Below, piece after piece: positions 1,568-4,263 of a stretch of DNA of 64,000 nucleotides. Position numbers and translations under genes: made by a program. The notes beneath the pieces are model-generated. The model did not search any database. It saw only the letters and a list, made by a program, of their open reading frames with translations, and was not told where the DNA came from. Position 1 is the stretch's first letter. Each line of letters begins with the position of its first letter. The DNA comes from Spirochaetia bacterium (GTDB lineage: Bacteria > Spirochaetota > Spirochaetia > UBA9216), in NCBI GenBank assembly GCA_963675665.1, contig OY776510.1:4736001-4800000 (forward strand), read 5' to 3'.

Positions 1568-1584
1568 CTGCAACAGTCAGTTTA
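1563..1584. terminator. Short hairpin at a convergent gene junction
   Basis: CTGACTG-CAA-CAGTCAG followed by TTT; it contains both stop codons. Confidence 0.4.
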
Positions 1585-2884
1585 CGCTGCTTGCGAGAAA
1601 CTCGGTTACCCTCCGGGCAATTGAAGAATAAATATCCGCGCGTTTCGAGTCGTCCGTTTCAAGAAGCGTAAACCTGAACCCCTTGAGTTCCGAACAGAAC
1701 CCGGTAAGAGGAACAACACAAATACCCTCGGCACCCAGAAGATAATAGACAAACCTTTTATCAAGCGGCATTCCTTTGGTAATCTGCTCAATATATGCTT
1801 TTATCCGGGGTTCCGGAATTTCAAGTTTCTGGTCCTCGTTCAATACACCGTCTTCAAAAAGAACAGTAAAATACAAAGCGCCCTGCGGCATGATTACATT
1901 GATACCGGGAATATTCTTCATAATATTAAAAGCTTCGCATGCCCGCGATGCAAGTATCAACGATTGGCGGCTGAGATGCTCCGCATAACGCGGATCACCC
2001 ATTATCAGCGGGATCGAGAGCTGCGGCAGTGTTGTTGAACATACTTCAAGCCTCTTGGCGTTTATCAGGCTGTTTATATAGGTGTTAAACTCTTCGTCCT
2101 TTTCGCGGTTATAAACTTCAATCCAGCCGCAGCGGGCTCCCGGCCAGGGATACTCCTTACTGACAGATTTCATTGATATTGCCGGAACGTCTCCGATTAC
2201 TTCGTTAATATAGGTGAAATTTACCCCGGGAAACACAACATTGCAGTATGTTTCATCTGCAATAATAAAAAGATCATGCTCGGCAGCTATATCGACTATC
2301 TGGTGTAAAACCTCCCTTGAATAAACAATACCGGTTGGATTATCGGGGTTAATAAGAAGGATCCCGGCAATCGAATCATTATATCTGACTTTATTGCGCA
2401 AATCTTCAATATCGGGAAGCCAGTTGTTTTCCGGATCAAGTGTGTATGTAAGATGTTCATAACCGGAATGCGCAGCTTCCGCCGAAGAATGTGTCGAATA
2501 TGCCGGCGAAGGTCCGATTATTCGGGCTTCCCTTTTCAAAAACCCGAAAATCTTGGCGACGGCGTCTCCGAGCCCGTTAAAAAATATAATATCGTCTGCC
2601 GAGGCCCTGGCCCCCTTCCGGGTCCCGAGCTGCGAAGACAGGAATTCCCTTGTGCCGACATCACCCTGACTGTCGGTATAACGATAACTCGCATCTTCGG
2701 CGGCCAGTCCGATAATAATCTCTTTCATCCACGGCTCCAGCTCCGCGCCTTTCTCTACCGGGTCGCCTATATTTTCCCATTTGATTTCTCTGCCGAGTTC
2801 CGAGATTTTATGAGCTATGCTCACAATCTGGCGGATCTCATAGGTAAGCTGCCTGGCCCCTAAATGTACAATTTCACGTCTCAT
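1577..2884 (-). CDS. PLP-dependent class I/II aminotransferase, AlaA/AlaT-like (probable alanine aminotransferase)
   Basis: Start reassigned to ATG 2884 (GGAGGAG SD). Motifs LTYEIR..ENIGDP, INPDNPTG, ADETY and SVSKEYPWPGARCGW (PLP lysine); the N-terminus resembles the AlaA subfamily (YDIRG..LNIGNP). Confidence 0.8.
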   Translation of the reverse strand: MRREIVHLGARQLTYEIRQIVSIAHKISELGREIKWENIGDPVEKGAELEPWMKEIIIGLAAEDASYRYTDSQGDVGTREFLSSQLGTRKGARASADDIIFFNGLGDAVAKIFGFLKREARIIGPSPAYSTHSSAEAAHSGYEHLTYTLDPENNWLPDIEDLRNKVRYNDSIAGILLINPDNPTGIVYSREVLHQIVDIAAEHDLFIIADETYCNVVFPGVNFTYINEVIGDVPAISMKSVSKEYPWPGARCGWIEVYNREKDEEFNTYINSLINAKRLEVCSTTLPQLSIPLIMGDPRYAEHLSRQSLILASRACEAFNIMKNIPGINVIMPQGALYFTVLFEDGVLNEDQKLEIPEPRIKAYIEQITKGMPLDKRFVYYLLGAEGICVVPLTGFCSELKGFRFTLLETDDSKRADIYSSIARRVTEFLASSVN

Positions 2885-2910
2885 TTTCTCCTCCGTTTGT
2901 TGCAGCTGTA

Positions 2911-2946
2911 ATAAAAAAACCGGCAAAGCCTGAAGACCTGCCGGTT
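2911..2946 (-). terminator. Intrinsic terminator upstream of the aminotransferase (attenuator)
   Basis: mRNA AACCGGCA-GGUCUUCAGGCUU-UGCCGGUU + UUUUU, lying 5' of the SD of the aminotransferase gene. Confidence 0.8.
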
Positions 2947-2995
2947 ATAATTCGAACATGTTACCGCAAGTCGCCAGACGACTGCGGCATTTTTT

Positions 2996-3076
2996 TCAGG
3001 AAAGACACAACGCCGCAGTCAATATTGCTGCTGCTGCCGCGGCGGTTGTTATTTTGCTGTCAATCCTTCTGTACAT
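2996..3076 (-). CDS. 26-aa poly-alanine leader peptide MYRRIDSKITTAAAAAAILTAALCLS
   Basis: ATG at 3076, TGA at 2998-2996; six consecutive Ala codons plus two more; sits between a sigma70-like promoter and the attenuator terminator. Confidence 0.75.
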   Translation of the reverse strand: MYRRIDSKITTAAAAAAILTAALCLS

Positions 3077-3082
3077 GCAATA

Positions 3083-3111
3083 AAATTATCGGCCAATTCT
3101 TTTTTTGTCAA
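3083..3111 (-). promoter_or_regulatory. Sigma70-like promoter of the leader peptide/aminotransferase
   Basis: TTGACA (3111-3106), 17-nt spacer, TAATTT (3088-3083), then 6 nt to the leader ATG, so +1 is predicted at the AUG. Confidence 0.7.
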
Positions 3112-3153
3112 GATGATCTTGCCAAAATCTCCCATATGATACTATTATTCAAT

Positions 3154-4263
3154 ATGCGCCCGCGTATCGTCAAAAACCTTTCAGCACTTTTTTTATTTAC
3201 AGTCACGATTACCGTGTCCGCCGCCGGACAAGACAGCAACACCGGCAGTACAGCATTGTTTATTGATTCGAACCCGATAAACGCTTTAATTATTATGGAC
3301 GGAGAGCCCCTGCTTCAACAGACTCCCGCTCTTGTCCGGAACCTTTCGCCGGGAGAACATATTATCGGAATTCGCAAAGACGGATATTCGCCTGAAGACG
3401 CAACAGTAAATCTTGAAGCAGGAATGACGGAGATTATCAAAGCGGAATTATCCCGCGGCACAATACTGGTAAATCTGCCGGACGAAAATTCTGTTTATCT
3501 CCAATCAGAGAGCATCGGGAATGTTCCCGAAGTATTCAGAATTCCCGAAGGCACCTATAATTTCCTGAAAAAAGAAGACGGATTATATATTAAGCCTGTT
3601 TATCCGAAAACCCGACTGCTGACAGTTACCGGCACGCTGTTTTTTGCGGCGCTGGCAATTAATACCGTATCAATTGCTATGGAACTTAACAGCAACGGAG
3701 AGTTGTTCCTGCCGCATTCCGACAGACTTATTATCACTGAAGCCGCCGCCGCAGTCTCCGGCCTGGCGGAACTGGCCATGCTGATTGACAAAAGATCTTT
3801 TATCAGCGATTTTGAGTTGCATCAGGCAGATTTGAAAAACCTTGAATCGGAAGCGGAAAAGATTTTCCAGACTTCCCAGCGGTCGTTGTCCTCCGGAAAG
3901 CTTGAGGACGCTCTTTCAGGTTTCAGCAGCCTCGTAAGCAGTTACCCGGATTCGCCCAGATTCTCCGAATCTTTATACAAGATTGCCAAAATTCACAGTA
4001 TTTCCGGAGATACAAACCTTGCAATATCGGAACTGAATATTATTATCGACCGTTTTCCTGATGCAGAGATCTACGACAGTGCCTGCCAGACGCTTGCGCT
4101 TTTGTATTCCAACTCCGGCAACCCTCAGGCCGCGGAAGAAATTGTAGGAAAGATGGTCTTCCTCAATTCGATTTTTTCCGAAACGGAAAAAGAGATTGAA
4201 GAACTCGGAATTGAAAAGGTAATTGAAAACTGGGCAAGAAATCCGGAAGGACGTACCGAATGA
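3154..4263 (+). CDS. Secreted/membrane protein with an N-terminal PEGA domain and a C-terminal TPR (BamD/YfiO-like) region
   Basis: Signal peptide from ATG 3154; PEGA-like IDSNPINALIIMDG..TPALVRNLSPGEHIIGIRKDGY; central hydrophobic segments; TPR-like 'LVSSYPDSPRFSESLYKIA'. The start could be slightly upstream. Confidence 0.7.
   Translation: MRPRIVKNLSALFLFTVTITVSAAGQDSNTGSTALFIDSNPINALIIMDGEPLLQQTPALVRNLSPGEHIIGIRKDGYSPEDATVNLEAGMTEIIKAELSRGTILVNLPDENSVYLQSESIGNVPEVFRIPEGTYNFLKKEDGLYIKPVYPKTRLLTVTGTLFFAALAINTVSIAMELNSNGELFLPHSDRLIITEAAAAVSGLAELAMLIDKRSFISDFELHQADLKNLESEAEKIFQTSQRSLSSGKLEDALSGFSSLVSSYPDSPRFSESLYKIAKIHSISGDTNLAISELNIIIDRFPDAEIYDSACQTLALLYSNSGNPQAAEEIVGKMVFLNSIFSETEKEIEELGIEKVIENWARNPEGRTE

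Follow-up and report, generated by a model that had tools for sequence, protein, structure and literature searches.

The 64,000-nucleotide stretch of a Spirochaetia bacterium genome analyzed here (GenBank assembly GCA_963675665.1, contig OY776510.1, positions 4,736,001 to 4,800,000; hereafter the window) contains a short open reading frame (ORF) with six consecutive alanine codons, followed by an intrinsic terminator and a gene for a pyridoxal phosphate (PLP)-dependent aminotransferase. Based on comparative sequence analysis and RNA folding models, this leader is very probably a functional, ribosome-mediated, alanine-responsive transcription attenuator that senses the supply of charged tRNA-Ala and regulates the downstream aminotransferase gene. 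Alanine sensing had been proposed in an initial annotation made from the sequence of the window alone, and the comparative check run here supports the proposal, as orthologous loci have a conserved alanine-run ORF whose codons vary synonymously, together with a terminator and an antiterminator that co-varies. It is also reasonably likely that the leader is a dedicated, cis-acting alanine attenuator that evolved on two or more occasions ahead of the orthologous aminotransferase gene, once as a leaderless form in spirochaetes (trp-/his-type) and once as a form led by a Shine-Dalgarno (SD) motif in Desulfuromonadia. The anatomy of the leader, its conservation, the synonymous alanine codons, the lack of an SD motif, and the competing RNA pairings with their co-variation were all computed here. 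The promoter, the 26-codon ORF with its alanine codons, the terminator, and the SD motif and ATG of the aminotransferase gene were confirmed by reading the sequence to lie on the minus strand where the initial annotation had placed them (Table 1).

Conservation of the alanine leader among spirochaetes

A search of 61 related genomes yielded 20 orthologous loci with an intact 5′ end, encoding enzymes that are 57–82% identical, and all 20 have an upstream short ORF that starts with ATG or GTG and contains an in-frame run of 3–7 alanine codons. Together with 11 leaders from named spirochaete metagenome-assembled genomes (MAGs), these loci form a curated set of 31 leaders. The start codon is located 30–54 nt ahead of the alanine run in every curated leader, and a −10-like hexamer ends 3–10 nt (mode 6) ahead of the start codon, also in 31 out of 31. 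The −35 element is TTGAC in 29 leaders, and a hairpin with a U tract is likewise present in 29. An SD-like motif was found before none of the 31 short ORFs vs all 31 enzyme genes. Within the alanine codons, GC is fixed at positions 1 and 2 and the third position is free (GCC 51, GCA 44, GCG 41, and GCT 17), and across orthologous leaders the runs comprise 3–8 codons. The residues flanking the run differ freely between curated leaders, and the peptide outside the run lacks conservation.

A covariance model (R1) built from 19 of the curated leaders was used to search 151 evenly sampled genomes of the same class. The orthologous gene occurs in 31 of these genomes and is adjoined by the leader in each of them, in one case as a weak version; R1 matches are located directly upstream in 28, and the remaining three leaders were found by eye. 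Translation of 14 newly found loci gave alanine runs of 4–8 in 12, and a run of 5 was found in locus L136, whose −35 element is weaker. Conservation of the leader spans many families of the class. One genome contains a second alanine leader (L135, G145:C130:5172-5282) at the end of a contig, with the gene behind it out of view, which may be a second copy or derive from a contaminating strain.

These comparisons bear on whether the ORF could have arisen by chance or be the relic of a lipoprotein signal peptide, since the peptide in the window combines a basic N-terminus with a hydrophobic stretch and a cysteine. However, orthologous peptides stop right past the alanine run or carry unrelated tails that lack cysteine, and they are unlike signal peptides. 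The conservation across many families also argues against a chance ORF. The comparative data refute this explanation, which retains practically no probability.

Predicted competing RNA pairings

The coordinates of the leader elements are given in Table 1. A simple consensus scan of the window listed neither the leader promoter nor the leader terminator, the former because TAATTT agrees with TATAAT at only three of six positions and the latter because its stem is bulged; the terminator was recovered by RNA folding. The 201-nt leader is more stable than its shuffles (z = −2.8), with 1 out of 200 shuffles being as good.

Table 1. Features of the aminotransferase leader and its surroundings, in coordinates of the window.
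Feature	Position	Strand	Basis
−35 hexamer TTGACA of the leader promoter	3106..3111	−	read in sequence
−10 hexamer TAATTT, 17-nt spacer	3083..3088	−	read in sequence
Predicted leaderless 26-codon leader ORF, MYRRIDSKITTAAAAAAILTAALCLS	2996..3076 (stop TGA 2998-2996)	−	sequence and translation
Region 1, proposed stall site, codons 12–17 (GCC GCG GCA GCA GCA GCA)	3026..3043	−	sequence
Region 2, partner of the alanine run (1:2) or of the 5′ arm of the next hairpin (2:3)	3011..3022	−	shuffle test, stalled-ribosome fold
Hairpin B (regions 3 and 4), 28 nt, −16.1 kcal/mol, without U tract, putative relay element	2962..2989	−	folding
Intrinsic terminator (regions 5 and 6), −15.4 kcal/mol, seven U	2913..2946	−	folding
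SD motif GGAGGAG of the aminotransferase gene	2888..2894	−	sequence
PLP-dependent class I aminotransferase, 435 aa, NCBIfam NF005334 (PRK06855), regulated gene	1577..2884 (ATG 2884)	−	profile search
Divergent neighbor, promoter TTGCCA, 18 nt, TATTAT and probable true ATG 3154	3119..3156	+	consensus scan

The more distant relatives follow a trp-type plan, in which the alanine run serves as region 1 and regions 3 and 4 form the terminator. Region 2 starts 0–25 nt past the run (mostly 3–11 nt) and overlaps or abuts the stop codon. In the leaders compared, the frame of the short ORF closes at or just past region 2. Pairing of region 2 with the 5′ arm of the terminator beats all but at most 10 out of 200 dinucleotide shuffles in 17 of the 19 trp-type leaders (mean z = −3.2). 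Cognate pairs of region 2 and arm reach a mean of −18.6 kcal/mol vs −14.5 kcal/mol for non-cognate pairs, and 0 out of 10000 permutations reach the observed value; the permutation result was the same in a subset of 15 leaders from which four close relatives had been dropped. The sequence comparisons thus indicate that the complementarity of the segment past the run co-varies between lineages. A column-wise covariation count for 2:3 based on a MAFFT alignment was dropped, as region 2 is out of register between lineages, and per-sequence shuffles and the cognate/non-cognate permutation test were therefore used. Of the 16 pairs predicted for the terminator stem of the relatives, 10 show compensatory changes.

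The leaders of the window’s own family (eight loci) depart from this plan. Hairpin B of the window corresponds in sequence to the terminator proper of the more distant relatives, but in this family the equivalent hairpin no longer has a U tract, and downstream of it there is a new terminator. If functional, the leader of this family would be a his-type relay. In contrast to a simple trp-type switch, the predicted arrangement of the window leader has three hairpins. The 2:3 duplex of the window has −20.2 kcal/mol, and the 2:3 value is reached by 0 out of 200 shuffles in all eight leaders of the family. The 4:5 duplex has −13.6 kcal/mol in the window (0 out of 200 shuffles); across the family it is matched by at most 2 out of 200 shuffles in five leaders and by 13–31 out of 200 in the other three. 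The leader ORF contains a further GCG GCG pair (3016-3011), which had been counted as part of the alanine signal. This part of the proposal was not borne out, as relatives read Ala-Val, Ala-Gly, or Ala-stop there and the segment is conserved as RNA, namely as region 2.

The conservation of region 2 as RNA rather than as peptide would also suit a structured RNA, such as a riboswitch or a protein-binding leader, in which GC-rich, partly palindromic segments read as alanine by accident and the ORF is incidental. The self-complementary GC core of the alanine run, which joins hairpin 1:2, fits such an RNA as well. However, an accidental reading is hard to reconcile with 3–8 successive GCN triplets that vary freely in the third position alone, with an in-frame start codon that abuts the promoter in 31 out of 31 leaders, or with a frame that always closes at or just past region 2. 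Moreover, no Rfam family matches the leader, and the version found in Desulfuromonadia (see below) keeps the alanine codons without a shared terminator sequence or a leaderless start. We regard a structured RNA of this kind as extremely unlikely. Within positions 2500-3600 of the window, an Rfam search with E-values up to 10 returned ArcZ alone, at 14.6 bits compared to a gathering score of 66, and there were no Rfam matches at gathering thresholds in 16 related loci.

Folding with a ribosome in place and proposed mechanism

The window leader was folded at equilibrium with a masked ribosome (13-nt downstream footprint) whose A site was placed at chosen codons. In the free RNA, pairings 1:2 and 3:4 are present along with the terminator. 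When alanine codon 1, 2, or 3 occupies the A site, pairings 2:3 and 4:5 form and the terminator is absent, whereas the terminator forms when the A site is at alanine codon 6 or at the stop codon.

In the proposed mechanism, we infer that the A of the ATG at 3076, or a position adjoining it, is the transcription start and that the leader ORF is therefore translated leaderless. When Ala-tRNA is plentiful, the ribosome would pass the six alanine codons to the stop codon and cover or clear region 2. Hairpin B (3:4) would form first and the terminator (5:6) second, and transcription would end near 2913. With scarce Ala-tRNA, the ribosome would halt on the first alanine codons and mask the run, and the free region 2 would pair with region 3. 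Region 4, released by 2:3, would then pair with the 5′ arm of the terminator (4:5), so that no terminator would form and the polymerase would enter the gene. The enzyme, which is related to glutamate-pyruvate aminotransferases, would then refill alanine.

Predicted leaderless design and branched-chain sister leaders

The predicted promoter sets the +1 position at the A of the leader ATG (3076-3074), which is located 6 bases past TAATTT and has no ribosome-binding site ahead of it. An alternative −10 element for this promoter is GATAAT (3090-3085) with a 15-nt spacer. A query of public sequencing runs with positions 2300-3500 of the window listed no RNA data set. A genome-wide search for TTGACN, 16–18 nt, TANNNT, a gap, and ATG gave a sharp peak at a gap of 6 nt, with 52 sites compared to 7–25 sites at other gaps. 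ORFs of at least 100 aa are opened by 32 of these 52 sites, vs 17% of all ATGs. Leaderless mRNAs thus seem to be common in this spirochaete.

The same genome encodes further leaders of this design. Near position 96346 (plus strand), a Val-rich, leaderless-type short ORF of 39 codons is located behind a TTGACC promoter and is followed by a terminator and the genes for the large and small subunits of acetolactate synthase, which makes it a putative branched-chain leader-peptide attenuator with the same leaderless design. An Ile/Leu-rich, leaderless-type short ORF with a terminator (L114, G000:C1:3231418-3231516, minus strand) precedes a second acetolactate-synthase-like gene; it was caught by R1 because its architecture is alike. 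In another genus of the class, an Ile/Val/Leu-rich, leaderless-type leader precedes acetolactate synthase in two genomes (L150 in G054 and L151 in G018), and the branched-chain version is therefore conserved too. With Val or Ile/Leu codons before acetolactate synthase, the codon content of the leaders tracks the pathway, and this match argues, at the sequence level, for amino-acid sensing over a generic stress leader.

A generic stress leader is nonetheless conceivable in principle, as any slowing of the ribosome within the run would have the same structural outcome. The short ORF would then be a general sensor of translation stress with no special tie to alanine, comparable to antibiotic-responsive leader peptides or to the upstream ORF (uORF) of whiB7, which is reported to react to many starvations and to ribosome-targeting drugs (PMC10274678). 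However, the alanine run is the sole conserved coding feature, the controlled gene encodes an aminotransferase and no resistance or stress protein, and the sister elements of the same genome have codons suited to their own pathway. A general stress sensor is therefore very unlikely, and alanine-responsive attenuation remains the preferred reading.

Occurrence beyond the spirochaetes

As a control, the best 80 orthologous loci were taken from a species-genome collection and 450 nt upstream of each was inspected. An alanine-run short ORF was found within this distance in 0 out of 13 Leptospira-type loci of the set. The 50 loci from other phyla, which include Desulfobacterales, Desulfovibrionales, Planctomycetota, Hydrogenedentota, and Gemmatimonadota, comprise two with a run of four alanines (L093 and L095), in both cases in longer ORFs far upstream. 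Upstream of the control genes, the covariance model gave no match apart from a weak one in the Geopsychrobacteraceae (L103, E = 0.03). The 5.15-Mb genome of the window was also scanned for promoter-adjacent short ORFs in which four or more identical residues follow one another; of the four candidates obtained, only this one has alanine. The other R1 matches in this genome are ordinary terminators or the Ile/Leu leader before acetolactate synthase, with no second alanine leader among them. In the class sample, 16 of the stronger secondary R1 matches were inspected, and these comprise three alanine leaders before the same enzyme, two branched-chain leaders, and otherwise terminators.

The weak match L103 pointed to an order of Desulfuromonadia in which 76 out of 81 genomes encode an orthologue of the aminotransferase. 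All 30 loci inspected in this order (L164-L193) have an alanine-rich short ORF upstream of the orthologue, with at least four and up to eight consecutive alanines in 23. An SD-like motif precedes the in-frame start in 24 of the 30, and in the ten loci in which the promoter was read it is located 20–30 nt further upstream. A conserved terminator motif unlike that of the spirochaetes occurs in 21 of the 30. A restriction of the alanine leader to spirochaetes was considered and rejected in view of these loci.

In a FastTree phylogeny of 126 enzymes, the Desulfuromonadia order forms one clade (support 100) whose neighbors are leader-less Leptospirales-type enzymes, and 31 of the 32 leader-bearing spirochaete enzymes are in a separate group (support 84), with deep nodes that are weak (26). 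The enzymes of this order are thus not sister to those of the spirochaetes in this tree. Two origins of the alanine leader appear to be the simpler reading of this tree. The presence in two phyla of alanine codons and a terminator before the same enzyme family is the strongest indirect evidence from sequence for what may be a role in alanine supply.

The putatively regulated enzyme

The aminotransferase matches NCBIfam NF005334 (PRK06855) at 647.5 bits (cut-off 443) over residues 1–432 of 435, a family named merely “PLP-dependent aminotransferase” with no assigned substrate. Against the alanine aminotransferase equivalog NF006230/PRK08363, it scores 165 bits, below the cut-off of 534. Among proteins of known structure, the closest relatives are E. 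coli AlaA (4cvq, E = 6e-38) and a Pyrococcus furiosus chain deposited as a “putative transaminase” (1xi9, E = 1.5e-35), both of the same fold class as the regulated enzyme. The initial annotation had called the enzyme AlaA-like. By these profile and structure searches, “AlaA-like” appears to be fair for the resemblance but not for family membership, as the enzyme belongs to NF005334 and is no AlaA equivalog. In E. coli, alaA is under Lrp control and is not known to be governed by attenuation. In-frame TGA codons inside some orthologues were considered as possible selenocysteine codons and rejected, since in the loci translated (L003 and L164) the TGA is the natural stop codon and the alignment overruns it.

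Strength of the attenuation model

Several observations weigh against an alanine-responsive attenuator or against parts of the mechanism proposed for it. Two related leaders, L033 and L036, contain alanine codons and a long hairpin that is not followed by a U tract; their control may be Rho-dependent or translational instead of by intrinsic termination. AT-rich lineages keep only a few scattered alanine codons, two in L142 and three in L035. Both retain the promoter, the frame, region 2, and the terminator, and may represent a decaying or re-tuned switch. Three spirochaete-labeled loci (L038, L090, and L109) have no leader; in the enzyme tree, two of these nest in leader-bearing clades and one groups with Leptospirales enzymes.

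The folding models add further points of this kind. With a stalled ribosome, the full-length leader at equilibrium loses the terminator in 4 out of 28 leaders and keeps it in 24, and the complete three-state equilibrium switch occurs in only 2 out of 28, the window included. The model therefore needs kinetic, co-transcriptional trapping, and in classical attenuators the decision is likewise assumed to be kinetic and co-transcriptional. In transcripts ending just before the 3′ arm of the terminator, at least half of the 5′ arm is sequestered in 29 out of 29 leaders with the ribosome on alanine codons 1–3, vs 6 out of 29 with the ribosome on the stop codon. This modeled contrast supports the kinetic reading. 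The six exceptions, namely the window and five further leaders with three hairpins, have their stop codon close to region 3, and for these six the off state of the putative relay hinges on the footprint that was assumed (13 nt) or on release of the ribosome. Support for pairing 1:2 is weak, as it beats all but at most 10 out of 200 shuffles in seven of the 19 trp-type leaders and one of the eight leaders of the window’s family, and 19 out of 29 truncated leaders fold as an antiterminator without a ribosome. Super-attenuation is therefore not predicted for most leaders, although a leaderless message, with translation starting at its very first base, may rarely be in the ribosome-free state.

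The genome also encodes other conceivable routes to alanine. Two alanine dehydrogenase genes score above the family cut-off (L161, G000:C1:220973-222055; L162, G000:C1:1453511-1454614), and both bear on how the organism makes and breaks down alanine. In addition, a paralogue of the aminotransferase is the protein of the genome closest to the alanine aminotransferase model, albeit below the cut-off (348 of 534 bits). The regulated aminotransferase is therefore not the sole conceivable source of alanine.

These other routes, the lack of an assigned specificity in NF005334, and the remote identity to AlaA-type enzymes would fit a variant of the model in which a genuine attenuator senses Ala-tRNA yet controls an enzyme that is not mainly an alanine synthase, either because this enzyme uses another donor or acceptor or because alanine serves as a proxy for nitrogen or pyruvate status. 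To our knowledge, however, the codons of every characterized leader-peptide attenuator (trp, his, leu, thr, ilv, and phe) name the product of the controlled genes. In the genomes searched, two phyla with differently built leaders have alanine codons before this enzyme family alone, and derepression upon alanine shortage would make no sense for a catabolic enzyme. This variant is thus unlikely, and the preferred reading is that the attenuator controls an enzyme of alanine synthesis.

Relationship to known attenuators

Classical attenuation is textbook knowledge for Trp, His, Leu, Thr, Ile/Val, and Phe. In hisL of Salmonella and E. coli, tandem codons are followed by hairpins A:B, C:D, and E:F (the terminator), which compete with B:C and D:E. 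The predicted pairings of the window (1:2, 3:4, and 5:6 vs 2:3 and 4:5) match this three-hairpin chain. Unlike hisL, the window leader has alanine instead of histidine codons, neither an SD motif nor a 5′ untranslated region, and no match to the Rfam family His_leader, and it controls a single enzyme gene, rather than a pathway operon, in a spirochaete host. The distant spirochaete leaders share the layout of trpL: region 1 holds the regulatory codons, region 2 contains or adjoins the stop codon, and region 3 forms the 5′ arm of the terminator. The window’s family differs from trpL by the inserted relay hairpin and new terminator, the predicted alanine specificity, and the predicted leaderless start.

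The initial annotation stated that no characterized dedicated alanine attenuator was known. In the open-access literature and bioRxiv, no cis-acting alanine attenuator before an aminotransferase was found for spirochaetes or for relatives of Geobacter, although a description in a subscription journal or regulon database is possible. One report mentions Spirochaetales just in statistics of the distances between short leader ORFs and genes (PMC4833913). The nearest published case found is the alanine-enriched uORF of whiB7 in mycobacteria, which chooses between a terminator and an antiterminator and is termed “Ala leader” by its authors (PMC10274678). The statement of the annotation therefore needs correction, although that leader does not act in cis on an enzyme gene. 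Under alanine shortage, WhiB7 is reported to be induced and to turn on aspC, an alanine aminotransferase gene (PMC10274678). The two systems share an alanine-rich upstream ORF, a terminator/antiterminator choice, and, as proposed for the spirochaete element, an increase of an alanine aminotransferase upon alanine shortage. However, the whiB7 uORF controls a transcription factor, and thus the enzyme indirectly, whereas the spirochaete element would act in cis on the enzyme gene. The whiB7 uORF is also long, of mixed composition, responsive to many amino acids and to antibiotics, and actinobacterial, as opposed to the tandem run of the spirochaete element.

The predicted leaderless start has a counterpart in the polycysteine leaderless short ORFs of mycobacteria, which are reported to be attenuators of downstream biosynthetic genes (10.1101/834739). 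These short ORFs are likewise leaderless and have tandem codons for one amino acid, but the amino acid is cysteine and the hosts are Actinobacteria, whereas the spirochaete element has alanine.

The divergent neighboring gene

The gene upstream of the leader is transcribed in the opposite direction. The initial annotation held that the short ORF is masked by an over-extended antisense call, and this was confirmed. The plus-strand ORF 3025-4263, which has a TTG start and covers the leader ORF, is probably over-extended, as it has an in-frame ATG at 3154 behind a TTGCCA-18-TATTAT promoter and 5 nt past its −10 element. The neighbor and the aminotransferase gene have back-to-back promoters, and both look leaderless by their sequence. 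The protein of the neighbor has weak YbgF/BamD-like TPR matches.

Implications

What is new here is the amino acid, the predicted leaderless start, and the host group, whereas the principle itself is classical attenuation and is not new. If the model is correct, alanine would join the amino acids governed by classical attenuation, with a direct, cis-acting switch. The uncharacterized but widespread PRK06855/NF005334 family would be marked as a regulated, alanine-forming transaminase of these anaerobes, which is a testable label. Leaderless leader-peptide control would extend beyond the published mycobacterial case to spirochaetes and would be in routine use there. The leaderless leaders of the spirochaetes and the SD-led leaders of the Desulfuromonadia would provide a natural comparison of two solutions. 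Moreover, short ORFs of this type escape gene callers, in this genome hidden under an over-extended antisense ORF, and annotation pipelines could learn to recognize them.

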